Of a DNA stretch of 24,000 nucleotides, positions 2,521 to 22,097 are shown piece by piece; the first letter of the stretch is position 1, and every line of letters begins with the position of its first letter. The stretch is from NCBI GenBank assembly GCA_041649415.1, contig JBAZND010000003.1, positions 7,617-31,616 on the forward strand, in the 5' to 3' direction. The notes under the pieces were generated by a model. That model worked only from the letters and a program-made list of their open reading frames with translations. It did no database searches and was not told where the DNA came from. The stretch comes from Parcubacteria group bacterium (GTDB taxonomy: Bacteria; Patescibacteriota; Minisyncoccia; UBA6257; Colwellbacteraceae). The translations under genes and the position numbers were made by a program.

Positions 2521-3876
2521 ATGACAAACGCCGAGGTGAAAGAAAATAAAGAGGAGAAAAAAGAAGAAAAACCCACAAGAAGAAATCCTTCTTTTCAGAC
2601 TCCAAAGGGAATGCGGGATTTGCTTCCCGAAGAATATCCATACTGGGAAAAAGCGCTCAATGCGGCCGCGGAAATTGCCGACTTCTATGACTTTGGGCAC
2701 ATTGAGACACCTATTTTAGAACACGCCGATCTTTTCTCGCGCGGAATAGGTTTAAGCACGGACATCGTGGAAAAAGAGATGTATGTCCTCAAAACCAAAG
2801 GAGGCGATTCGCTAGCCCTAAGACCAGAATCAACCGCGCCCATAATGCGTTCATTTATTGAAAATGGAATGAGCAGACTTCCGCAGCCGGTTAAACTTTG
2901 GTATTTCGGACCTCACTTCAGACACGAAAACCCGCAAGCGGGTCGCTACAGGCAGTTTTACCAAGCCGGTTTTGAAATTGTCGGGGGAGAATCCGATCCG
3001 GTGTTTGACGCTGAAATAATAATCGCGGCAACGCATTTTACGGAAAGGATGAAAATAAAAAACGTTGTTCTTGAGATGAACAGTATCGGTTGCCGCCAGT
3101 GCCGAGGAATATACCGGAAGAAACTTCAGGACTACTACCGAAAAGAAACGGAGAGCGTTTCAAAAAGAAAAGGCAGGGTGATTTGCAAAGACTGCGAACG
3201 GAGACTGGAGACGAACCCGTTAAGACTTCTAGATTGTAAAGAAGAAAACTGCGCAGAGCTAAGAGCAAACGCGCCGAGCATTTTAGATAGTCTCTGCTCG
3301 CCTTGCAGAACGCACTTTAAAGGGGTCCTTGAATTTATTGATGAAGTTCAAATCCCGTATGCGATAAATCCTTACCTTGTTCGCGGTTTGGATTACTATA
3401 ACCGCACCGTTTTTGAACTTTTTGCGGAAGATGGAAAAATCGCTTTGGGCGGCGGCGGCCGATATGATTATCTCGCCGAAATGATTGGCGGTAGAAGCAC
3501 TCCTGCCGTCGGCGTCGCTTTAGGATTAGACAGAATCATAAACCTCCTTAAGGAAAGAGAAATTAATTCAGAACCTAAAAGAAGAGAAAGAGCTTTTATC
3601 GCCCATGTGGGCGATACCGCGAGAAAGAAGATATTCACGCTCATGGAAGAATTTTATAAAAATGGCGTGAAAATCATTGAAGCGCTCGGCAAAGATTCGC
3701 TTCAAGCGCAACTCAAAGTTGCCGACAAAGAAGGCTGTCCTATAGCCCTTATAATTGGCCAGAAGGAAGTCTATGAAGAGACAGTTATTGTTCGCGACAT
3801 GAAAACCGGCACCCAAGAAAACGTGCCGACGGGAAAAATCGTGGAAGAAGTTAAAAAGAGATTGCATGGCAAATAA
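2521..3876 (+). CDS. hisS: Histidine--tRNA ligase (class II)
   Basis: GMRDLLPEE, LRPESTAP, YFGPHFRHENPQAGRYRQFYQ, RGLDYYNRTVFE and GGGGRYD are class II HisRS motifs. The Cys-rich insertion domain is also present. The N-terminus carries about 25 aa of K/E-rich extension. Confidence 0.92.
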   Translation: MTNAEVKENKEEKKEEKPTRRNPSFQTPKGMRDLLPEEYPYWEKALNAAAEIADFYDFGHIETPILEHADLFSRGIGLSTDIVEKEMYVLKTKGGDSLALRPESTAPIMRSFIENGMSRLPQPVKLWYFGPHFRHENPQAGRYRQFYQAGFEIVGGESDPVFDAEIIIAATHFTERMKIKNVVLEMNSIGCRQCRGIYRKKLQDYYRKETESVSKRKGRVICKDCERRLETNPLRLLDCKEENCAELRANAPSILDSLCSPCRTHFKGVLEFIDEVQIPYAINPYLVRGLDYYNRTVFELFAEDGKIALGGGGRYDYLAEMIGGRSTPAVGVALGLDRIINLLKEREINSEPKRRERAFIAHVGDTARKKIFTLMEEFYKNGVKIIEALGKDSLQAQLKVADKEGCPIALIIGQKEVYEETVIVRDMKTGTQENVPTGKIVEEVKKRLHGK

Positions 3877-4282
3877 AGATTGTCTATTTTGTAAAATTGC
3901 CGCAAAGGAAATAAACTCCGCCACAATATACGAAGATGAAAACGCCATGGCCTTTTTGGATGTTCACCCACTCGCTCCCGGACATGCTATCGTAATTCCG
4001 AAAATTCATGCCGAAAACATCCTTGATTTATCGGACGAGCTTATAGGACCCATATTCAAAGCGGTTAAAAACGTAACATCTTTGCTTAAAGAAAAGTTAG
4101 GTCCTAAAGGGTTTACAATCGGGATAAATCACGGTAGTATAAGCGGCCAATCAATGAATCACCTTCATATCCACGTCATACCGAGATTTGAAGGGGATGG
4201 CGGAGGCTCAATCCATTCGGTTGTGAAGAATCCGCCGAAAGAAAGTTTAGAGGAGATTAAACTAAAAATTGTCAGTAACTAA
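3866..4282 (+). CDS. HIT-family nucleotide hydrolase (HinT-like)
   Basis: CLFCKI at the N-terminus and the histidine triad NHLHIHVIP. Length is 138 aa. It overlaps the hisS stop by 11 nt. Confidence 0.85.
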   Translation: MANKDCLFCKIAAKEINSATIYEDENAMAFLDVHPLAPGHAIVIPKIHAENILDLSDELIGPIFKAVKNVTSLLKEKLGPKGFTIGINHGSISGQSMNHLHIHVIPRFEGDGGGSIHSVVKNPPKESLEEIKLKIVSN

Positions 4283-8443: not shown

Positions 8444-8515
8444 TCCCCTGTAGCTCAACGGTAGAGCGACTCCCTGTTAAGGAGTGGGTTGTAGGTTCGA
8501 GTCCTACCGGGGGAG
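8444..8515 (+). tRNA. tRNA-Asn (anticodon GUU)
   Basis: Hand-folded cloverleaf. Acceptor TCCCCTG/CGGGGGA, D arm GCTC-AACGGTA-GAGC and anticodon arm ACTCC-CTGTTAA-GGAGT. T arm GTAGG-TTCGAGT-CCTAC and discriminator G. CCA is not encoded. Confidence 0.9.
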
Positions 8516-8641
8516 CTATCGATTTCTATGAATCCGACCCATCTGCGTCCATAAAGAAGCTAATAAACATGAGGGTTTCAGACGCAGATAGGACGGGGTT
8601 CTGAATCATTCCCATTCGTATCCCAGATAGGAAATAGAACT

Positions 8642-9187
8642 ATGGCAATCAATATCACATATTTCGTTCACGGAACGACAACCGATAACCAGAAAGAAGT
8701 CTCTTCCGGCTGGTCTGATGTCGAACTTTCTGAAAAAGGAATACAGCAATCCGAAGCTCTAAGAGACCAAACCAAGGACAAAAGGTTTGATATAGTTTTC
8801 TGCTCCGACCTTAAAAGAGCAGTTCAATCAGCTAATATCACTTGGGAGGGGATTTATCCCATAATCCAAGATAAAAGACTCCGCGAGTGCAACTACGGAG
8901 ATTATAACGGTAAGTCATCAGAAATCGTTGAACCTCTTCAAGAGAAGATGATTACAGAAAGATTCCCGAACGGCGAAAGCTACGAAGATGTTAAAGCAAA
9001 GATTGCCGACTTTTTGGAATTTTTGAAACAAAATTACGACGGAAAATCCATTGCTCTCGTAGCCCATAAAGCGCCCCAACTAGCATTAGACACATTACTT
9101 AAAGAAAAAACTTGGGAACAAGCTTTTGCCGAAGATTGGAGAAAGACTAAATCTTGGCAGCCTGGATGGGAATATATTTTGAAATAA
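8642..9187 (+). CDS. Histidine phosphatase superfamily (phosphoglycerate mutase-like) protein with a variant active-site motif
   Basis: YFVHGTTTDN aligns with the RHG motif region but lacks the Arg. FCSDLKRAVQSA and the distal VAHKAP His are family-like. Length is 181 aa. Confidence 0.6.
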   Translation: MAINITYFVHGTTTDNQKEVSSGWSDVELSEKGIQQSEALRDQTKDKRFDIVFCSDLKRAVQSANITWEGIYPIIQDKRLRECNYGDYNGKSSEIVEPLQEKMITERFPNGESYEDVKAKIADFLEFLKQNYDGKSIALVAHKAPQLALDTLLKEKTWEQAFAEDWRKTKSWQPGWEYILK

Positions 9188-9191
9188 ATCT

Positions 9192-9653
9192 ATGACCGAT
9201 AAAGACTTTCTAAAACTAGCTATTGAGCAAGCAAAGAACTCTGTTTCTCAAGGAGGTTTTCCCGCGGGAGCTGTGGTTGTAAAAGGTGGAGAAGTTATTT
9301 CTGAAGGAGTCAGCCTCGGCTTCAAGTTAAACGACTTAACCAGTCATGCTGAGATAACCGCCGTAAGGAAAGCATGCGAAAAACTACAGACAACAGATTT
9401 AACGGGAGCTACTCTTTATGCCTCTCTAACACCATGCTTAATGTGCTTTAGCGCTGCTAACTGGGCGAGTATCTCAAGAATAGTCTTTGGTTGCAGAAAG
9501 ACAGACGAGATGGTTAGTAAGGGATATTATGAAGGCGTTACCGATATCACAAAAATTAATCAGGAGAATAGCAAAAAAATAGAACTAGTTTATCTTCCTG
9601 ATTTTGAAGAAGAGATTTTGAGAGTAATAACTGAATGGGAAAAGAATCGGTAG
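9192..9653 (+). CDS. CMP/dCMP-type zinc deaminase (nucleoside/guanine deaminase or TadA-like)
   Basis: HAEITAV (catalytic Glu and zinc ligand) and PCLMC (zinc ligands). Length is 153 aa. Confidence 0.8.
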   Translation: MTDKDFLKLAIEQAKNSVSQGGFPAGAVVVKGGEVISEGVSLGFKLNDLTSHAEITAVRKACEKLQTTDLTGATLYASLTPCLMCFSAANWASISRIVFGCRKTDEMVSKGYYEGVTDITKINQENSKKIELVYLPDFEEEILRVITEWEKNR

Positions 9654-9674
9654 TAATTATAGAAATAAATATTT

Positions 9675-10181
9675 ATGAAACTAATCAAATTAATAAATCC
9701 AGAAAATGTATCTGAGGAAGAAGTAAAGAATTATGAGACACGCGAAGCGGGACGCGCTGTTGTTTTTGACGAAGACGACAAAATAGCACTTCTTTATGTA
9801 CGCCAAGAAGATTATTACAAGCTCCCAGGGGGCGGGATAGAAGACGGAGAAGATGTAAGGGAAGCTCTTAATAGAGAGTGCCTTGAAGAGGCGGGCTGTA
9901 ATATTGATATCACAAATGAATTAGGTTCTATCGTTGAATACAGAAAATCAATGAACCTCAAACAAATTTCTTATTGTTTTATGGCAAAAGTTAAAGGCTC
10001 CAAAGGGGCTCCAAATTTTACCGATGAGGAAGAACAGAGGGGCTTTGAATTGGTCTGGCTATCTTATAAAGAAGCATTGAACGCTTTCGAAAACAGCAAG
10101 ACAACTTTTGATGAAGGAAAATTATATATAATCCCACGAGATAGGGCATTTATAGAAGCGGTAGTCCCTTTCGTTAAATAA
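9675..10181 (+). CDS. NUDIX hydrolase
   Basis: The NUDIX box GGGIEDGEDVREALNRECLEEAGC fits GX5EX7REUXEEXGU. Confidence 0.85.
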   Translation: MKLIKLINPENVSEEEVKNYETREAGRAVVFDEDDKIALLYVRQEDYYKLPGGGIEDGEDVREALNRECLEEAGCNIDITNELGSIVEYRKSMNLKQISYCFMAKVKGSKGAPNFTDEEEQRGFELVWLSYKEALNAFENSKTTFDEGKLYIIPRDRAFIEAVVPFVK

Positions 10182-10192
10182 AATTTTTAATT

Positions 10193-10303
10193 ACACAATA
10201 TCTCTCCCACAAATCATTCATATAACCACTATCTGAAAGGATGGTTATAATATTATTAAGGGATGCGAGCACGTAGGGTAAAATTGCACTATAGGGCGAT
10301 TTT
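10193..10303 (+). promoter_or_regulatory. Conserved intergenic element, copy A (hairpin, then TATAAT, then terminator-like hairpin)
   Basis: 39 of 53 nt are identical in an ungapped alignment of 10193-10245 with 16962-17014, and similarity continues after the TATAAT. Hairpin CTATC-TGAAAG-GATGG lies at 10229-10244 and TATAAT at 10246-10251. Hairpin AAAATTGC/GCGATTTT lies at 10280-10303. Confidence 0.5.
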
Positions 10304-10472
10304 ATCCACCAATTTTTACCATTTCGTAAAAGCTCCTCATATTCGCTAGAATATAGAGGACTTAAAGAAGCTCTTATTAGGCTTAAGCGTAAAGATATAT
10401 CAAATTAACAGGGAAAAGTCCGAGAAAATTAACTCGGACATAGTTTATATTATTTTTTTTATCTATCAAGCT

Positions 10473-10844
10473 ATGATAACTATTAAAACTATTAAAATTG
10501 AAGACATCTGGCAAAAAGATGAAAGAGTTGAAAAATGGAGAAAACTTTTAATTCCCATGATTCAATATGATGTAGAAAAAGCGGATGTAAAATATGATAG
10601 TCAGGATTTAGAACACCAGGTCTTATTCAGACTACTTACGGACGAAAAAATTACAATCCAAAATGCTTTCTATGAACAGAAAGAAATCGTTGTTGAGCGA
10701 ATGAAAATAGCCAAGATCTCCCCAGAAAAGTTGTTTTGTTGGGGAGATGATAGAGAACAAGAAAGTTGGAGAATGGAGTGGGGAAAAGATAAAGAAGAAT
10801 TATTTGCTGTTAGAGGTAAAGAAATTAAAGAAATTATTTTTTAG
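10473..10844 (+). CDS. Hypothetical protein (123 aa), no recognisable motif
   Basis: An ORF in an AT-rich region with a charged, Lys/Glu-rich composition. No recognisable SD or family motif. Support is ORF length and its non-overlapping position only. Confidence 0.4.
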   Translation: MITIKTIKIEDIWQKDERVEKWRKLLIPMIQYDVEKADVKYDSQDLEHQVLFRLLTDEKITIQNAFYEQKEIVVERMKIAKISPEKLFCWGDDREQESWRMEWGKDKEELFAVRGKEIKEIIF

Positions 10845-10947
10845 AGAAATAACATTAAGAAAAGAAAAGGAGATTTGTAAAAATATTATAAAGAATTATC
10901 ACTATATTCATTTATAGAGAAAAATAAATTATTTTATATTGAAAAAG

Positions 10948-11460
10948 ATGATTGAGAAAGAGTTTAAATTCAAAATAGACAATGTGAAAGAGCTGTTTAA
11001 AAAAATAGACGGTGTTAGACCAGAGATCTTTTATTGCAAAGACGAAATATTTGGTAAGGGGCTGGGGTATGAAAAAGAGAAGATCAGAAAAAGGACGATC
11101 ATCTCGCAGAAGGGAACGAAGATAAATTATGAAGGCACTAAATTATTAAAAGTAAAGAATGTTAATCGCGTCAGAGAAAATACATTATCTAAAATCCCCG
11201 TAGGATTCGCCTTGGAGTGTTCCTATGATAAAGTGAGATTTTTATTTAAAAGGGAAAAATATGAAATTACCATAGATATTTATGCTTTCGGTATTTTCTG
11301 CGAGATAGAGGGTGAAGAAAAAACGATAAAAAGAATCGCTAAAAAACTTGGATTCAAAATAGAGGATAATATCCAAACCAACATAGACTCTCTTTATTGT
11401 GAGTGGGCAAAGAAAAATAAAAGGAAAGAACTCTACCACTGGGGATTTGGTAGATTGTAA
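10948..11460 (+). CDS. CYTH-domain protein (triphosphate tunnel metalloenzyme / class IV adenylyl cyclase-like)
   Basis: N-terminal ExExK signature (IEKEFKFKI), IRKRTI, and the C-terminal acidic strand FCEIEGEE. I chose the ATG at 10948 because TATATT at 10935-10940 lies 7 nt upstream. The track uses the TTG at 10939. Confidence 0.6.
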   Translation: MIEKEFKFKIDNVKELFKKIDGVRPEIFYCKDEIFGKGLGYEKEKIRKRTIISQKGTKINYEGTKLLKVKNVNRVRENTLSKIPVGFALECSYDKVRFLFKREKYEITIDIYAFGIFCEIEGEEKTIKRIAKKLGFKIEDNIQTNIDSLYCEWAKKNKRKELYHWGFGRL

Positions 11461-11636
11461 GAATTTTGCATGGTAACGATAGATAAAAATTATGATATGA
11501 GATTTTTTAAAAGCAAATATTCCTTACCTTACAAAATTATTTTAGTTGCGCCATCCTATGACTTATCATCCGGCGAAAAAATATAATGATTACTTCCTTC
11601 GTCCATAATCCAGGTTCGAATTTCCTTGAGTGTGGC

Positions 11637-11687
11637 GAGCCAACTAGAGCTAGCTCAAGATTAGCTGCTTTTGAAGCAAAAACACCT
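11637..11687. repeat. Imperfect direct repeat R1, copy a
   Basis: GAGCCAACTAGAGCTAGCTCAAGATTAGCTGCTTTTGAAGCAAAAACACCT matches 14582-14631 at about 46 of 51 positions by hand alignment, and the first 22 nt are identical. Weaker similarity, including a shared ATCCGGC, extends about 100 nt upstream of both copies. Confidence 0.7.
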
Positions 11688-11820
11688 CTGCAAGATTCAT
11701 CCCTCAAATTAAAGATGATCCAAAAAGGAATAAGGGCAGGCGCTTGAACCAATTCTGAGGCGTTGCGAAGAATTGAGTGAGAGGTGGTTCCCCTTTAGGG
11801 CTGCCAACCTAAAGAATTAG

Positions 11821-11853
11821 TATAAGAAGCCATCAATTGAAGGGCTTCTTATA
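11821..11853 (-). terminator. Hairpin downstream of the minus-strand cassette (possible terminator)
   Basis: TATAAGAAGCC / GGCTTCTTATA 11-bp stem with an 11-nt loop, about 95 nt downstream of the HIT-like stop. The minus-strand trailing sequence is only moderately T-rich (ctaattcttt). Confidence 0.4.
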
Positions 11854-11948
11854 GTTGTAGGGCAACTACCTTTTAAAAATAATTTCTCCCTATCTTTTGT
11901 TCTGCCAAGGCGGAGAGTTTTTATCTGGCTTTTGGGGTACCTGCCAAA

Positions 11949-12599
11949 TTATTTATTCAACTTCAGTTTCTTGAATGTTTCAATTGTTTTTTTAATATCT
12001 GAATAACGATTACTCTTGGAGTCTCTCCATTCATAAGAATTATCATAACCAGCCTGCTGGGCAACAAGTTTTATAAAGCATGATCGGGGAGCATCTTTAA
12101 TAGAATGAGACATATAATAGTGTTTATTCTCAGATCTATACATCCAATAATCTTTGTGCTTCATGTTATGTAAAGAAACTATAGTAGATTGTAATCCCAG
12201 CTCTAATTCATCAAACAACTTTTCTAAATTATCACGGGAAATATTTATAGGAATAATATGTAGGTGTGCATGAGTAATACTGAGTGGATGCCTTCCTTTC
12301 GGTAAGGAACCATGTTCAAAAAATATTGGGTAAGTTCCTATAATTTTATGATATTCATCGCAAATTCTATCTAATAAACCTTCTAGCCTAAATAGATTGC
12401 AAGAATCTAATTCTGCAAACCCATTGATATGTTGTTTTGAGACAACCATTAAATAATTAGGAATGGACATCCCTAATGCTGGTTTAATTAGTACCAAATC
12501 ATTTTCGTAAAGAACTGTATTTTCTGGTTTAGAGCAAAGTTCTTTATCGATTTGATTTACTAAAGAGCAAAACACACAATCTTTCAAAAAGTTCATCAA
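11949..12599 (-). CDS. HIT-superfamily protein with a C-terminal extension (nucleotide hydrolase/transferase-like)
   Basis: CVFCSL near the N-terminus and the histidine triad THAHLHIIP. About 90 aa of extra C-terminal sequence is present. The start overlaps the upstream NUDIX stop by 4 nt. Confidence 0.7.
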   Translation of the reverse strand: MMNFLKDCVFCSLVNQIDKELCSKPENTVLYENDLVLIKPALGMSIPNYLMVVSKQHINGFAELDSCNLFRLEGLLDRICDEYHKIIGTYPIFFEHGSLPKGRHPLSITHAHLHIIPINISRDNLEKLFDELELGLQSTIVSLHNMKHKDYWMYRSENKHYYMSHSIKDAPRSCFIKLVAQQAGYDNSYEWRDSKSNRYSDIKKTIETFKKLKLNK

Positions 12600-13084
12600 T
12601 CCTTTTTGATTATGTGTGTTAAAGTGCCTAATTTGTTGTTCGCCATCAAATCCTTAACAGTGAATGGTCTAAGATCTATTTCTTTCAATTCATCAATAGA
12701 AACCCATTTGATAAATAAGTGTTTTTCTTCACCACGATCGATTTCTATAACTTCTCTGTTAACTGTTTCAATGTCTTCTTCTGGTTCGATAATGTAGTAG
12801 TATTCTACACCATGCTGAACAATTCCTTTTTTCTCATAGAAATTCTCTTGAATACAAAATAGAGTTGCGTTTTTAACAGTGTAATCTAATTCTTCCTTGA
12901 TTTCTCTGGCAACAGCACTAAGAGAATCCTCACCTATTTCAATATGTCCACCTGGAATGTGATAATATGGTGCATTATCCACATTCATAATTAGGAATTT
13001 GTCATTGCGTTTGATAATTCCTACGACTCGATTGTAATAATTATAATCCTCAGTTTTAAATTTAATCTCTTGTTTCATCTTCAA
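12596..13084 (-). CDS. NUDIX hydrolase
   Basis: NUDIX box GGHIEIGEDSLSAVAREIKEELDY. It overlaps both neighbouring genes, which suggests translational coupling. Confidence 0.8.
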   Translation of the reverse strand: MKMKQEIKFKTEDYNYYNRVVGIIKRNDKFLIMNVDNAPYYHIPGGHIEIGEDSLSAVAREIKEELDYTVKNATLFCIQENFYEKKGIVQHGVEYYYIIEPEEDIETVNREVIEIDRGEEKHLFIKWVSIDELKEIDLRPFTVKDLMANNKLGTLTHIIKKD

Positions 13085-13748
13085 TATTTCCTTTTAAAAT
13101 ATTTTCAATTTGTCTTATGTCCATAAAATTATTGGTTGTATCATAAACAATGCTTGCTTTTGCTCCGTTGTTCAGTACGCTATATAAATTCATATGTCGT
13201 AAAATATCAACGCCATACTTTATCCTATTAGAACCAAGTTTTTCCCGTTCCACGAACCTTTCAATAAGAACCGATTCTTCACCCGTTAACATTATAGACA
13301 ATGTTGAATCTTTCCAAATATCTGTTAGTGGTAGTAAAGCATGATTCAATACAATTAAGTCAGGTTTATCAAAAGGACTCCACTTGATTATTTTGCTGTA
13401 TTTAGATATGAAATCTTCATAATCTAAGTCCCTAAAATCGTTTAAAATTTTAAGAATTGTTCTATTCATGTATTCCATTATAACTTTGTACCATTCTATA
13501 TATTCATCAAGAGTTATAATCTTGTCATAAATAACACATCTCAGAAAGTACGTTCTCAAATCTTCATCTTCCTTAATTGGCTCATTGTGAGTAAACTTAA
13601 ACACATTATTTTCGATATCTTCTTCAAAAAACATTGTTCTTAAATACTCTAAGTCCAAAGAAAGACCATTACGCAAAGAAGCAAAGGAATTACACAGTGT
13701 TGTTTTGCCACAACAAGGCAAACCCGCAATACTAATAATTTTTGTCAT
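13062..13748 (-). CDS. P-loop NTPase, putative nucleoside/nucleotide kinase
   Basis: Walker A motif GLPCCGKTT lies 8 aa from the chosen start (MTKIISIAG). AAGGGA lies 5 nt upstream of the ATG at 13748. The track start at 13778 has no RBS. Confidence 0.6.
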   Translation of the reverse strand: MTKIISIAGLPCCGKTTLCNSFASLRNGLSLDLEYLRTMFFEEDIENNVFKFTHNEPIKEDEDLRTYFLRCVIYDKIITLDEYIEWYKVIMEYMNRTILKILNDFRDLDYEDFISKYSKIIKWSPFDKPDLIVLNHALLPLTDIWKDSTLSIMLTGEESVLIERFVEREKLGSNRIKYGVDILRHMNLYSVLNNGAKASIVYDTTNNFMDIRQIENILKGNIEDETRD

Positions 13749-13832
13749 AGAGTCCCTTCTTAATGGATGGTTATTCATTTTACAAGCTATTGTCAGATTG
13801 TTTGAAAAATTATTTAAGGACTATTTTTATGA

Positions 13833-13867
13833 TTTTAAAAAATGTGGGAAGTGGTTACTCACTTCCC
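13833..13867 (-). terminator. Intrinsic terminator or attenuator between the NDK-like and P-loop genes
   Basis: On the minus strand, GGGAAGTG-AGTAAC-CACTTCCC forms an 8-bp stem overlapping the NDK-like stop codon. It is followed by ACATTTTTT. Confidence 0.55.
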
Positions 13868-14377
13868 ATGGTTCCAATCTTGCTTGAGAAGAACAATGAT
13901 AGGTAATGGAACACCAATTCCTTCTTCTCGACATAGAGCCAAAATAGTCGCTGCTCCTTCCGCGTCATCAGGAGTATGCAATCTATTTTCAGCTAGTTTG
14001 TCTTGAAGTGATAGGCCTTTGTAGCCCATCAGGATCAGTTCATCCTTCAAGTGATAGCAAAACCTCTTCCTGATTCCACCCGTATCCATTCTTCCTTTGA
14101 GCTGTCGTAGAACCTCCCAAATATCTGTATTTGTGAGATTCTTGACTACGATAACCATTGAAAGCCCAAATGTGATGGCCTTAACTCTCGAAGAATAAGT
14201 TGGCCCTGCCACTTCCTTTGGATAAATGATATGGGCGACTTCCGGCCTTATTTGCCAGTATTCTTTCCATACTATTTCTAAGCCCCCTTCCTCAAGACAT
14301 CTGATGATGTCATTTTCCAAACCATCCCTGATAGAGTCTGGTTTAAGAATTACTAGTCCATATCGCATTTTTAGCAC
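13859..14377 (-). CDS. Nucleoside diphosphate kinase-like protein
   Basis: GLVILKPD, GIRKRF and NRLHTPDDAEGA align with the NDK motifs LIKPD, GTIRGDF and NxIHGSDSxESA, so the catalytic His is retained. An insertion of about 20 aa precedes the His motif. Confidence 0.6.
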   Translation of the reverse strand: MLKMRYGLVILKPDSIRDGLENDIIRCLEEGGLEIVWKEYWQIRPEVAHIIYPKEVAGPTYSSRVKAITFGLSMVIVVKNLTNTDIWEVLRQLKGRMDTGGIRKRFCYHLKDELILMGYKGLSLQDKLAENRLHTPDDAEGAATILALCREEGIGVPLPIIVLLKQDWNHGK

Positions 14378-14581
14378 CCCCTATGCAAATATCTCGGAGT
14401 GCCCCACACTCCTTTACATCTTTTCATTTTTTAATACAACTTACTTGCTCATAACATAAAATCAAGATAAGGTCAAAGATTAAGGAAAAATAACAGAGTT
14501 AGCCACCATTTATCCCAAATCCGGCACATAGATATACCCCTCTTTTTCTTGTATTATTGTTCTAACGTTGTTTGCAACTCT

Positions 14582-14631
14582 GAGCCAACTAGAGCTAGCT
14601 CAAAATTAGCTATTTTTAATCAAAAACACCT
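14582..14631. repeat. Imperfect direct repeat R1, copy b
   Basis: GAGCCAACTAGAGCTAGCTCAAAATTAGCTATTTTTAATCAAAAACACCT, in the same orientation as 11637-11687. Confidence 0.7.
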
Positions 14632-14721
14632 ATTAGTTAAAGGGGGTTTTGTAGTAAATAAGGACAAACCAAGTATGAACACTACTAAAGAACAGGAACG
14701 AGCGGAACTACATCAAGCCAT

Positions 14722-14750
14722 TTGACAAACACCTAAGAAAGTGCTATTCT
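14722..14750 (+). promoter_or_regulatory. Sigma-70-like promoter upstream of the GC-rich gene
   Basis: TTGACA at 14722-14727, a 17-nt spacer, then TATTCT at 14745-14750. Confidence 0.4.
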
Positions 14751-14806: not shown

Positions 14807-15436
14807 ATGGCACTGACTAACAGTCAGAGAAAGGAATTCCTTATGAAGTACTCAGAGTTAACCTTAGGCACCGTGGAAGCGGTAGTAAACAAACTCGGTG
14901 GCATGGAGGGGGTACAAGCGTTTCTCCGCGATGAACTCGTTCTGACCAAGAAAACAGGACAGACCTTTCCCCTGCGGCACACCATCAAGCTCGGCACCGA
15001 AGAGACAACCGACGCCTTGAAGGAATCCCTGAAGAAAGCCGGTTGCGATGTCTCCGACTGGGCAAACGACATCATGAACCAGCCCACCTTCACGCTGAGC
15101 AAAAGCGAGAATGAACTGGATCTCGTGGTTTTCTCCCTCGCCGACCTTGGCTTCATCGGAGCCCGCTACAAGAATATCTGTGAGAAGGCCAAAGAGCTGG
15201 GCTTGCAGCTATGTCCTCTCGAAGTCGGACCCCAACTCCGACTGCAGTACGCCGACCAGCCGAAAGGCGAATGGCTCATTATCGCCATGGAGCCGATTGC
15301 CGTTTCGGGTGGCGATCTCGGGGTGTTCGGCGTCGGACGGGGCGACGACGGCGAGCAGTGGCTCAACGGTCACTACGGTCATCCCGGCAGCTTCTGGCGC
15401 AGCAACTACCGCTTCGTGTTTGTGCGTAGCAAGTAG
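14807..15436 (+). CDS. Hypothetical protein encoded by a GC-rich gene, unknown function
   Basis: A 209-aa ORF. Two hand-counted 60-nt lines gave 53% and 58% GC, against about 30-40% in lines from the neighbouring cassette. An 8-bp hairpin (14788-14806) abuts the ATG at 14807. The ATG at 14843, preceded by AAAGGA, is therefore an alternative start. Confidence 0.55.
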   Translation: MALTNSQRKEFLMKYSELTLGTVEAVVNKLGGMEGVQAFLRDELVLTKKTGQTFPLRHTIKLGTEETTDALKESLKKAGCDVSDWANDIMNQPTFTLSKSENELDLVVFSLADLGFIGARYKNICEKAKELGLQLCPLEVGPQLRLQYADQPKGEWLIIAMEPIAVSGGDLGVFGVGRGDDGEQWLNGHYGHPGSFWRSNYRFVFVRSK

Positions 15437-20891: not shown

Positions 20892-22097
20892 ATGAATATT
20901 AACGAATGGTTTTCTCCAGGCGGGCCGGTACAAAACATCTTTCTCTACGCCTTAGGAATCGGAGCGATAATCGCACTGGGAGTTATCATATTCGGAGCAA
21001 TAAAGCATGTTACCTCCGGGGACAGTGAATCTAAACAAAAAGAAGCCAGGGCATGGATATTTGCTGCTGTAAAAGGATTGGCTGTTTTGGCAGGAGGCTT
21101 TGTCATTCTCTCAATTGCCAATCCGGGTCTCTTAGTTATAAATACCGCTCCCCTTGACCTTGTAACGGACATTCTTGCGGTTCCCCCTCCAGTGGATAGC
21201 GCCTTTATTTCAGGCGTTGATCCCGTTACGGGAGAGGCGATATTTGACAGGAACAAAGTTCAGATAGAAGGGAACAAAATAATCATCAAAGAATTGCCGG
21301 AAGGGATGACAGTCAGTTCGGCTATCAGCGAGTTAAAAGCCCGTGTAAAAGACAATAATATTCAGGGAGTTGAATCAATCACGGACGAATCCACTGGAGA
21401 GAATATTCAAATAGTTATTACTACCCAAAGCGGTTTTGACTCCACAGATGTTGCGAATAAACTTCTGGCTCCACAACAAACGGGCAGCATCGGCGGCGGA
21501 AGCACATCGGGCAAAATGGTTTATATCGCTCCTGTCCAATCTTTATTCCAAACGGACAGACGCTGGGTAAATAAAGAAATCGGTCCGGTGCCGAATTGTC
21601 CAAGCCAACACACATACGGCAGAAGAGGATGCGGACCGACATCTCTTGCTATGGTTGTTTTATACCTTACGGGAAATAAATACGTAACAGCGGATAATGC
21701 GGTTACGACCATGGGAGCGAAAATAGTTGAGAGAGGATATAAAAGATGCGCCGGCAGTGAACCAAGCGGTGTATACAAATCGGCCTTTACCGCCAAAGGC
21801 ATACCTGCCAATTTCGGGCTTACATCTTATAACGTCAATAATCAAGCAGGTGCGAAAAAATGTTTTTCGGAGGGAGGAATCATGGTCGGATCAATGGTCA
21901 AATCCAACGACGATAAAAATGACGTAACATGGCATCCAAAATTTACGGATTACGCTCACTATATAGTGGTCAAGGGAATAGATGAAAATAAGAATCTGTT
22001 TTATATAAACGACCCAAACGGAGGGAGAGTTAAATCGTCGGAAATAGCGCATTTCTTTAAACGCAGTAACGTTAGGTGGTGTATTAAAAGAAAATAA
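20892..22097 (+). CDS. Membrane-anchored protein: N-terminal two-helix pilin-like module plus C-terminal C39-like (papain-fold) cysteine peptidase domain
   Basis: The N-terminal helices are IFLYALGIGAIIALGVIIFGAI and AWIFAAVKGLAVLAGGFVILSI, separated by the loop KHVTSGDSESKQKEA, as in VirB2/TrbC-type pilin modules. The C-terminus has RRGCGPTSLAMV (Cys247, codon 21630-21632). It also has YAHYIVVKGIDENKNLFYINDP (His356, codon 21957-21959). Confidence 0.6.
   Translation: MNINEWFSPGGPVQNIFLYALGIGAIIALGVIIFGAIKHVTSGDSESKQKEARAWIFAAVKGLAVLAGGFVILSIANPGLLVINTAPLDLVTDILAVPPPVDSAFISGVDPVTGEAIFDRNKVQIEGNKIIIKELPEGMTVSSAISELKARVKDNNIQGVESITDESTGENIQIVITTQSGFDSTDVANKLLAPQQTGSIGGGSTSGKMVYIAPVQSLFQTDRRWVNKEIGPVPNCPSQHTYGRRGCGPTSLAMVVLYLTGNKYVTADNAVTTMGAKIVERGYKRCAGSEPSGVYKSAFTAKGIPANFGLTSYNVNNQAGAKKCFSEGGIMVGSMVKSNDDKNDVTWHPKFTDYAHYIVVKGIDENKNLFYINDPNGGRVKSSEIAHFFKRSNVRWCIKRK

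Follow-up and report, generated by a model that had tools for sequence, protein, structure and literature searches.

Classical tRNA-linked islands insert at tRNA-Asn genes in Enterobacteria. Hydrolysis of NpnN and nucleoside phosphoramidates is established for Fhit and Hint, dephospho-CoA kinases phosphorylate the 3′-OH of an ADP-containing cofactor, and phage T4 remodels its dNTP pool with a dNTP pyrophosphatase, then a dNMP kinase and then a nucleoside diphosphate kinase (NDK). Members of the Patescibacteria (the candidate phyla radiation, CPR) live as epibionts; they are abundant, for the most part uncultured, and believed to rely on other cells for their nucleotide supply. Here we describe a 24,000-nucleotide stretch of a Colwellbacteria-like Patescibacteria genome (positions 7,617 to 31,616 of contig JBAZND010000003.1, assembly GCA_041649415.1; hereafter the window) in which nine open reading frames (ORFs) follow a tRNA-Asn gene. 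We found that the region downstream of this tRNA is a variable accessory-gene hotspot, and that the nine-gene block is a mosaic of at least three independent units, A1 (8642 to 10181), A2 (10473 to 11460) and B (11949 to 14377), rather than one system. The core of unit B is a recurrent operon that encodes a kinase-like P-loop protein, a NUDIX hydrolase and an extended HIT-superfamily protein. A tRNA-linked mosaic hotspot that carries a mobile unit B, with a proposed role in nucleotide salvage, is the best overall explanation of the locus and, in our judgement, probably the right one.

The tRNA-Asn(GTT) gene (8444 to 8516, plus strand) forms the left anchor of the variable region. It was identified by ARAGORN and by Rfam (RF00005, 69.8 bits), is intronless and does not encode the CCA end. 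These searches agreed with a preliminary description of the window, which had placed nine ORFs after a tRNA-Asn(GUU), and the coordinates of the nine ORFs were likewise confirmed. A repeat search revealed two copies of a 45-nt sequence, designated D1, that are 84% identical to each other. D1a (11637 to 11681, plus strand) divides the plus-strand genes from the minus-strand operon, and D1b (14582 to 14626, plus strand) forms the right boundary of that operon. The 17-nt core of D1 occurs twice, compared with 0.02 occurrences expected by chance. D1 consists of the final 3 nt of tRNA-Asn (GAG), followed by CCA and by the 3′ trailer with a small hairpin.

Gene neighbourhoods were compared by tblastn of all window proteins against 120 fetched loci, labelled L001 to L120. 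In L004 the tRNA-Asn gene ends in GAG-CCA, and the D1 sequence is contiguous with it: D1a is 97% identical over 30 nt to L004 positions 11994 to 12023, and D1b is 93% identical over 43 nt to positions 11994 to 12035. In L005, D1 lies 2.8 kb away from tRNA-Asn, with different cargo between them. Since D1 corresponds to the CCA end and trailer of tRNA-Asn, and since it abuts the tRNA in L004, we conclude that the tRNA-Asn flank is a variable insertion hotspot. The preliminary description had raised this possibility, and it is borne out by cargo that differs in L004, L005 and L007 and by window genes that are non-core and compositionally deviant. Apart from a remnant in L007, none of the nine genes was found downstream of ftsZ in 80 related loci. 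L001, a second assembly of the same strain with identical upstream sequence, ends at window position 8652, 136 nt past the tRNA.

The occupants of this flank in relatives are diverse. The L005 cargo between tRNA-Asn and D1 (12490 to 13608 and 14066 to 14737) encodes an AIR-synthase-related (PurM-like) protein and a SOUL haem-binding protein. Past the undisturbed trailer, L004 (12166 to 13232) encodes a SocA/Panacea-domain antitoxin (1e-19) and a PemK/MazF-like toxin (5e-05), and this toxin-antitoxin pair is followed by an 84-aa ORF that appeared HTH/XRE-like by eye. The tRNA genes themselves also vary. Orthologues of tRNA-Asn in L003 (7009 to 7349), L004 (11734 to 11951), L005 (11843 to 12131) and L007 (12099 to 12413) contain a group I intron in the anticodon loop (Rfam RF00028, 53 to 79 bits), and these genes were missed by ARAGORN. 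The window gene has no intron, and thus intron presence is polymorphic in the clade. We found nothing specific in open-access papers on CPR tRNA introns or CPR tRNA islands. Inspection by eye also showed a 10-bp inverted repeat (CCATCTGCGTC...GACGCAGATAGG, 8528 to 8601; loop of about 31 nt), possibly a terminator or regulatory site, in the 125 nt that separate the tRNA from the first gene.

To account for the arrangement in the window, we propose that DNA was inserted at least two times between the body of tRNA-Asn and its original trailer, such that 8517 to 11636 (module A) and 11682 to 14581 (module B) would each represent an insertion. A 10-mer located 15 nt upstream of D1a (AGGTTCGAAT, 11612 to 11621, plus strand) is a possible relic of a tRNA T-arm. 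It matches the tRNA-Asn T-arm of L004, L005 and L007 exactly, and it was equalled in 8 to 16 of 5000 shuffles. It counts as weak evidence, since the same test was not significant for D1b or for D1 in L005. The notion of a decayed tRNA 3′ half in front of each D1 copy was withdrawn, as the test was positive for D1a only. An Rfam scan of the spacers at E<=5 detected only the tRNA and no further tRNA relic or noncoding RNA, and a scan of IMG/VR with the D1 sequence gave no match.

A variable hotspot linked to a tRNA is a known kind of feature. As in tRNA-linked islands, the block lies directly 3′ of the tRNA, a sequence from the region of the tRNA 3′ end, possibly an island-type direct repeat, recurs at module boundaries, the cargo varies among relatives, the GC content is deviant, two modules are stacked and gene decay is evident. 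The hotspot is atypical in that the window block has no integrase or excisionase. In addition, D1 comprises the last 3 nt, CCA and the trailer rather than the usual 15 to 50 nt of the tRNA body, the tRNA has no repeat copy behind it, and only one D1 copy has a credible T-arm relic. Movement may have occurred by DNA uptake and recombination instead of through an integrase.

The preliminary description had implicitly treated the nine genes as one module. We found that the units differ in composition, distribution and history. The co-occurrence check that it had suggested was carried out on the 120 loci, and none of them holds more than one unit. The drop in GC content that had been reported is real but does not begin at the tRNA. 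Regional values are 0.29 to 0.38 between 9.5 and 14 kb and 0.41 to 0.51 upstream, whereas the first three genes, which make up unit A1, have values of 0.38 to 0.40, similar to those of the core HIT and P-type ATPase genes elsewhere in the window. Values of 0.30 to 0.33 were obtained for orf123, the CYTH gene and the HIT-like, NUDIX2 and P-loop genes, and the NDK-like gene has a GC content of 0.42. Spacers within the block measured 291, 488 and 429 nt, in agreement with the long spacers (290 to 490 nt) that had been estimated. A promoter scan gave 22 sites, compared with 21.4 in shuffled sequence, and hence no excess.

The core of unit B was found in four other, independent contexts. In L083 to L085, the order is NDK-like, P-loop, NUDIX and a 25-aa HIT-like remnant. 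In L086 to L088, a 116-aa P-loop remnant is followed by NUDIX, HIT-like and HD genes. In L089 to L097, which represent five species, a gene for a kinase-like protein (orf205) precedes P-loop, NUDIX and HIT-like genes, and the operon is fixed between rplK and nusG. In L118 to L120, in which the HIT-like protein is 43% identical to that of the window, we found either Tmk-like, NUDIX and HIT genes or a P-loop-NUDIX fusion followed by a HIT gene. The NUDIX gene adjoins the kinase-like gene, the HIT-like gene or both in all four contexts, and P-loop-NUDIX fusions occur in P0045, P0068 and L120. In a collection of 5.8 billion proteins, the HIT-like family forms 31 clusters and the P-loop family 23 clusters, and members of both lie together on the same contigs. 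The P-loop profile was matched at E<=1e-10 by just 16 of 1.84e9 representatives. The first slot of the operon is variable, as it holds the NDK-like gene in the window and orf205 in the rplK-nusG clade. We considered orf205 as a counterpart of the NDK-like gene and rejected it: the two proteins have no BLASTP similarity, and orf205 is a weak P-loop kinase-like protein. We did not find a description of the linked, sometimes fused kinase-NUDIX-HIT arrangement in open-access papers.

Two lines of evidence bear on the history of this operon. In the rplK-nusG clade the operon genes are 72 to 88% identical and the flanking genes 78 to 97% identical, with one neighbouring gene at 78 to 88%. Divergence of the operon is thus like that of its neighbours, indicating vertical inheritance under purifying selection. 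The window and L083, on the other hand, share 90.3% DNA identity over 1,882 bp, and the shared stretch consists of exactly the NDK-like, P-loop and NUDIX2 genes and the first 73 nt of the HIT-like gene; NUDIX2 is 91% identical to the L083 protein. The flanks of this stretch in L083 are unrelated to the window and have a GC content of 50 to 58%, compared with 29 to 37% for the module. In L007, NUDIX2 is present at 88.7% DNA and 88% protein identity together with slivers of both neighbouring genes, and it sits 135 nt from that genome's own tRNA-Asn, although FtsZ is only 61 to 65% identical. DNA identity of about 90% across genomes that differ in GC content and have unrelated flanks indicates that unit B was transferred recently. 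The trio is under selection and is physically coupled through gene overlaps and fusions.

The first gene of the operon in the window encodes a divergent NDK-like protein of 172 aa (13859 to 14377, minus strand; Pfam NDK, 1.4e-11). The Pfam match (PF00334) reached 44.9 bits against a cut-off of 27, and the NxxH motif with the catalytic His is present in the sequence NRLHTPD. The best match to the NCBIfam Ndk equivalogs was 39.4 bits, below their cut-off of 155. The canonical HGSD reads HTPD in this protein, an insertion precedes the motif, and NDKs in the Protein Data Bank (PDB) match at 2e-06. A terminator-like hairpin with a 9-pair stem followed by a T-run (13845 to 13868, minus strand) lies between the NDK-like and P-loop genes and coincides with the step in GC content from 0.42 to 0.30.

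The second gene (13062 to 13778, minus strand; GC content 0.30) encodes a P-loop protein with the fold of nucleoside monophosphate (NMP) kinases, which was recognised by AAA_18 (2.2e-07) and carries the Walker A motif GLPCCGKT. Its true start is likely M11 (13748), as homologues begin there and residues 1 to 9 have pLDDT values below 50 in an AlphaFold2 (AF2) model whose overall pLDDT is 89. Foldseek matched this model to CoaE, Cmk, Adk and Udk with E values of about 2e-06 and TM scores of 0.5 to 0.57. Distant matches of the family profile are to CoaE at E values of 1e-4 to 1e-6, which makes dephospho-CoA kinase the nearest named family, though a remote one; neither the protein nor its close family has a CoaE (PF01121) match in Pfam.

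NUDIX2, of 162 aa (12596 to 13084, minus strand; Pfam NUDIX, 4.6e-14; GC content 0.32), matched PF00293 with 53.0 bits against a cut-off of 21.1. Its NUDIX box is present with the final G replaced by D, and its second-best PDB match is an Ap4A hydrolase. The stop codon of NUDIX2 overlaps the start of the HIT-like gene, and NUDIX2 also overlaps the P-loop gene, suggesting translational coupling with both neighbours.

The last gene of the operon (11949 to 12599, minus strand; GC content 0.31) encodes a protein of 215 to 216 aa that, as judged from its sequence, is a divergent member of the HIT superfamily with a C-terminal extension of about 90 aa. The family profile matched HIT proteins in the PDB at 1.7e-08, and three residues of the HAHLHII motif (H110, H112 and H114) are invariant in 20 family members. 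These results bear out the earlier assignment of this gene, even though the single sequence does not match PF01230 and reaches only 18.2 bits (0.0035) with DcpS_C, below the cut-off of 24. It also matched phrog_23000 at 6e-07. The extension contains conserved DYW, PRS and YEWR motifs and has no match among solved structures, and it sets the protein apart from known HIT proteins. Each unit B protein retains its catalytic motif intact, be it the NUDIX box, HxHxH, the Walker A sequence or the histidine of NDK.

We tentatively propose, with slightly less than even confidence, that unit B is a nucleotide salvage line. NUDIX2 and the HIT-like protein would release NMPs from nucleotide conjugates (such as NDP-X, NpnN, nucleoside phosphoramidates or adenylates), the kinase-like protein would phosphorylate NMPs again to NDPs, and the NDK-like protein would convert NDPs to NTPs. 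These roles are predicted, and the substrates are inferred from family chemistry. The host is presumed to be unable to make nucleotides de novo, a presumption that comes from reports on the phylum and not from this genome. Given the established chemistry of NUDIX, HIT, NMP-kinase and NDK enzymes, salvage is the most economical reading. It is also the best supported, because in other genomes unit B lies beside genes for the salvage of pyrimidines and nucleosides: two PNP and two DCD genes in the L083 to L085 context; genes for HD, Xan_ur_permease (a uracil/xanthine permease), UPRTase, CTP synthase and TK in the L086 to L088 context; DCD and ThyX-Tmk genes in the rplK-nusG clade; and the gene for a Tmk-like kinase in the L118 to L120 context. 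Thus, among the three readings offered in the preliminary description, scavenging in a reduced genome fits best, given that the organism is a Patescibacteria metagenome-assembled genome (MAG) and that unit B has these salvage-gene neighbours elsewhere, whereas its defence reading has no positive evidence.

Two further genes near the operon in other genomes deserve mention. The rplK-nusG clade encodes proteins of about 780 aa beside DCD (L092 875 to 3232, L093 1070 to 3433, L095 1398 to 3746 and L096 789 to 3128) that combine Thy1 (ThyX) and thymidylate kinase with or without dNK, a fused enzyme for dTMP synthesis and phosphorylation near the operon. In two independent contexts, L086 (10258 to 10959) and L118 (9728 to 10366), a CmpB-type membrane protein (PF06541) is encoded one to three genes away from the NUDIX-HIT pair, and it could be a transporter for the substrate of the operon.

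By their signatures, folds and profiles, and by their salvage-gene neighbours, the unit B proteins resemble known salvage and pool-sanitising enzymes (MutT, RppH, Ap4A hydrolases, Hint, Fhit, DcpS, NMP kinases, CoaE and NDK). They differ from these in that no unit B protein reaches an NCBIfam equivalog cut-off and in that the kinase-like family is isolated. Unit B also resembles the dNTP-pool remodelling of phage T4 in joining an NTP/NDP-X pyrophosphatase (NUDIX), an NMP-kinase fold and an NDK; unlike the T4 pathway, it lacks a base-modifying enzyme and phage context, and PHROG matches revealed no homology to T4 gp56 or gp1.

Several observations weigh against a mobile salvage unit at a tRNA-linked hotspot. 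With respect to the hotspot, no Phage_integrase, recombinase or transposase domain was found in the ORFs between 8005 and 16883, and no D1 copy stands behind the intact tRNA-Asn of the window. Upstream of D1b and of D1 in L005, the test for a T-arm relic was not significant. The 'empty site' is present in one genome only (L004), and because all relatives are distant (FtsZ identity of at most 73%), the order and number of insertions are a reconstruction. Low GC content was rejected as sufficient proof of foreign origin, since it persists where the operon is vertically inherited, with the P-loop gene staying at 0.28 to 0.32. With respect to function, the P-loop protein is 11 to 19% identical to characterised kinases and remote from all of them, and the association with salvage genes rests on four contexts. 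Finally, the families are very rare and patchy and the operon decays in several genomes, a pattern seen more often in accessory or defence modules than in a salvage pathway that is indispensable.

It is also conceivable, if unlikely, that unit B makes or removes a specific regulatory or cofactor-type nucleotide instead of serving bulk salvage. Candidates would be a 3′-phosphorylated nucleotide, (p)ppGpp or pGpp, Ap4A or another Np4N, or a CoA- or NAD-like dinucleotide. A CoaE-like kinase would phosphorylate a ribose hydroxyl of an adenylylated compound, and the NUDIX and HIT proteins would turn the product over. This would agree with the fold and the profile of the P-loop protein, both of which place it nearest, among named families, to dephospho-CoA kinases, with the Ap4A hydrolase as second-best PDB match of NUDIX2, and with the classical hydrolysis of NpnN and nucleoside phosphoramidates by HIT enzymes. 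The tight kinase-NUDIX fusions suggest a dedicated substrate channel, and the families are rare and highly specific. However, the similarity to CoaE is remote (E values of 1e-4 to 1e-6, TM scores of 0.52 to 0.57 and no CoaE match in Pfam), no signal synthetase, cyclase or effector is consistently linked to the trio, and the neighbours are salvage enzymes rather than regulators. The CYTH protein of the window belongs to a different unit.

In a related and bolder form of this idea, the overlapping, sometimes fused trio of an isolated CoaE-like kinase-fold protein, a NUDIX hydrolase and a HIT protein with its unique extension, with a variable phosphotransfer enzyme in front, would constitute an undescribed three-enzyme system. 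It would spread horizontally among ultra-small Patescibacteria and have one specific nucleotide-derived target (a signal, cofactor or immune messenger, for example) in place of the bulk pool; we regard this, too, as unlikely.

That unit B is a mobile module for anti-phage defence, toxin-like activity or counter-defence, and the tRNA-Asn flank a defence island, is improbable. In such a module a nucleotide pool would be depleted or modified, or a nucleotide signal destroyed, on infection. The rare and patchy distribution of the families, their recent transfer, repeated decay and persistently low GC content would all suit this reading, as would the toxin-antitoxin pair at the hotspot in L004. A search of the component proteins with PADLOC-DB v2 hidden Markov models matched NUDIX2 to the candidate system PDC-S07 at 4.3e-13, but this match is to the generic NUDIX domain, and the other matches were marginal (dCTPase, 0.0017; VakA, 0.00094). 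No system-specific match was obtained, and there is neither a sensor nor a nuclease, a membrane effector or any component of abortive infection. Scans of IMG/VR with the profiles of the P-loop and HIT-like families yielded nothing except one distant (30%) HIT match in a 303-aa protein, and tblastn against INPHARED gave no match, so that no phage-borne copy was found in either collection. Moreover, the operon is stable between rplK and nusG in one clade and evolves there like its neighbours, and its neighbours are metabolic salvage genes. The window also recalls anti-phage nucleotide depletion by dCTP deaminase or dGTPase, and PDC-S07, in that a deaminase and NUDIX proteins occur in an island-like setting. 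However, the dCTP deaminase models match at E values of only 0.0017 to 0.0036, within some 48 residues that hold the zinc motif, and the deaminase of the window is a single-domain protein of 153 aa of the guanine, cytosine or TadA type. The defence or counter-defence role considered in the preliminary description is therefore not favoured by these searches, and salvage continues to be our preferred function for unit B.

The genes outside unit B bear on whether the whole block could be one system. Unit A1 consists of three tightly packed plus-strand genes of near-native GC content that are not kept as a set elsewhere. The plus-strand genes as a whole probably encode separate salvage or housekeeping enzymes that would have been gathered at the same hotspot. 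The first gene of unit A1 (8642 to 9187; GC content 0.40) encodes a branch 1 member of the histidine phosphatase superfamily of 181 aa (Pfam His_Phos_1, 1.2e-32; 113.6 bits against a cut-off of 21.7). Its NCBIfam matches (CobC, PspA and dPGM) were all below their cut-offs, and its best PDB match is PhoE (1ebb, 1.1e-11). Residues 9 to 11 are VHG, aligned to RHG of 1ebb, such that the Arg before the nucleophilic His is absent; by eye, the nucleophilic His itself and the conserved Arg, Glu and His residues further along the sequence are apparently kept. It may be an atypical or impaired enzyme. The relatives of this protein (PhoE, dPGM, PspA and CobC) are not nucleotide enzymes, which qualifies the earlier statement that eight products act on nucleotides or phosphoanhydride bonds, although the eight family assignments themselves hold.

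The second gene of unit A1 (9192 to 9653; GC content 0.40) encodes a zinc deaminase of the CDA superfamily with HAE and PCLMC motifs (153 aa; Pfam dCMP_cyt_deam_1, 1.7e-24). It scored 78.9 bits against the TadA equivalog of NCBIfam, which has a cut-off of 150, and its PDB matches include guanosine deaminase (7dbf, 1e-21), TadA (1wwr, 1.6e-20) and guanine deaminase (3.9e-19). Because scores with guanosine and guanine deaminases are as good as those with TadA, no substrate can be assigned to this single-domain protein, and candidate substrates are guanosine, guanine, cytosine or those of a TadA-like enzyme. Homologues with 42 to 91% identity occur in 15 metagenome loci that lack the histidine phosphatase and NUDIX1, and homologues with 55 to 66% identity stand alone in other genomes. 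The closest of these loci, the 1-kb metagenome contig L102, carries the deaminase at 687 to 1065 with 88.7% DNA identity to window positions 9192 to 9570, preceded by a GNAT gene. Positions 1 to 76 of the same contig match 15626 to 15711 of the window, a segment that lies about 600 nt upstream of the deaminase in L102 and 6 kb away from it in the window, so that this close relative has either a rearranged order or a different island content. The third gene (9675 to 10181; GC content 0.38) encodes NUDIX1, of 168 aa (Pfam NUDIX, 3.3e-16). It has a perfect NUDIX box, GGIEDGEDVREALNRECLEEAGC, and matched PF00293 with 60.0 bits against a cut-off of 21.1; its best PDB match is an uncharacterised MutT/NUDIX protein (2azw). 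Pfam thus upheld the earlier assignments of the histidine phosphatase, deaminase, NDK and P-loop proteins and of both NUDIX proteins.

Unit A2 (plus strand) contains a gene remnant and a CYTH-fold gene. The 123-aa ORF (orf123, 10473 to 10844), which had been listed as a gene for a protein of unknown function, proved to be part of a frameshifted and 3′-truncated pseudogene that, with its shifted-frame continuation, spans 10473 to 10917. It aligns only to the N-terminal third of an intact 323-aa protein (L100 1060 to 2031). The frameshift lies in a run of six T's (10837 to 10842) that has five T's in L098 and L100, and the extra T creates an in-frame TAG. Homology resumes in the shifted frame to about 10912, after which about 400 to 560 nt are lost before the CYTH gene. 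An intact orf123-type gene precedes the CYTH gene in L098, L100 and L101, whose neighbourhoods are unrelated.

The CYTH gene (10939 to 11460; GC content 0.33) likely starts at ATG 10948 (MIEKE...), as in homologues and in the NCBI annotation. Its product matched no Pfam family, including CYTH, even at E<=10. The AF2 model (pLDDT 80) has eight long strands, and the top 25 Foldseek matches in the PDB are all CYTH or triphosphate tunnel metalloenzyme (TTM) proteins, that is, triphosphate tunnel enzymes and class IV cyclases (2dc4, 1yem, 7nsf and 2fjt; E values of 1.8e-07 to 2e-6, TM scores of 0.59 to 0.65). The ExExK motif is EKEFK at residues 6 to 10. The earlier CYTH assignment was thus right at the level of the fold. 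Like CyaB, ThTPase and archaeal TTMs, the protein has an eight-stranded tunnel fold in which acidic and basic tunnel residues are conserved, and the ExExK motif lies at its N terminus; unlike them, it is missed by the Pfam CYTH model, and it belongs to a tiny family of 9 clusters that is coupled elsewhere to the 323-aa protein of unknown function.

It is highly improbable that all nine genes act together in one nucleotide-metabolism or defence system that arrived as one island. The nine genes do follow the tRNA directly and as one contiguous run, eight of the families are tied to nucleotide or phosphoryl chemistry, and their local density is far above background: eight island genes occupy 5.7 kb, whereas a single-sequence phmmer search with the eight proteins, a rough and biased control from which the syntenic core HIT was excluded, gave 3 matches in 1.25 Mb of related Patescibacteria loci. 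However, no genome among the 120 loci joins more than one unit, GC content differs between units, an internal D1 copy parts the plus- and minus-strand sets, orf123 is a pseudogene, and the units are convergently transcribed with a 488-nt gap between them. The idea that nothing special is present, and that native, dispersed housekeeping genes are chance neighbours with a GC dip caused by amino-acid composition, can practically be dismissed: the first three genes do have native-like GC content, the deaminase at 78.9 bits could be the TadA of the genome, and the low GC content of unit B persists under vertical inheritance, but unit B is about 90% identical at the DNA level in genomes with different GC content and divergent core genes, the trailer of the tRNA occurs in two copies, relatives have none of the nine genes at the syntenic position, and the block includes a gene remnant.

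Upstream of the nine ORFs lies a housekeeping block (PilN-like, pth, lepB, hisS, HIT, yqeY, ybeY, ftsA and ftsZ) whose order is kept in dozens of related loci. The conventional HIT gene in this block (3866 to 4282), which the preliminary description had correctly set apart from the island copy, matched PF01230 at 4.9e-25 and is syntenic in 25 related loci. The closest FtsZ relatives are Candidatus Colwellbacteria MAGs with 72 to 73% identity, and identical proteins are on deposit as WC519_02675 and WC519_02680 ('Parcubacteria group bacterium'). To the right of the block are genes for a 209-aa ORF of unknown function, a HAMP protein, a P-type ATPase, TspO and others. The 209-aa ORF (14807 to 15436, plus strand) lies right next to D1b and has a GC content of 0.56, with 0.71 at third codon positions (GC3), in a genome of about 0.43. 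It had no match in Pfam, PHROGs, NCBIfam or PADLOC and looks like another foreign gene, from a high-GC donor, suggesting that the variable region reaches past the right edge of the block. Unrelated to the nucleotide enzymes is a 401-aa protein of unusual architecture (20892 to 22097, plus strand), in which an N-terminal T4SS-pilin-like segment and a short DNA_topoisoIV match are combined with a C39-like or AvrRpt2-like cysteine peptidase domain.

The main interest of this locus lies in the unit B operon and in the evidence of active gene flux in a very small genome. A local concentration of related enzyme families can arise from independent units at one hotspot and need not represent one system. 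Even genomes as small as these Patescibacteria ones keep a tRNA-linked hotspot at which accessory genes are gained, stacked and degraded. To our knowledge, the processing of nucleotides after they are scavenged by Patescibacteria is poorly known, and the kinase-NUDIX-HIT operon is a compact, conserved and exchanged candidate for this function whose proteins are clear targets for recombinant study.

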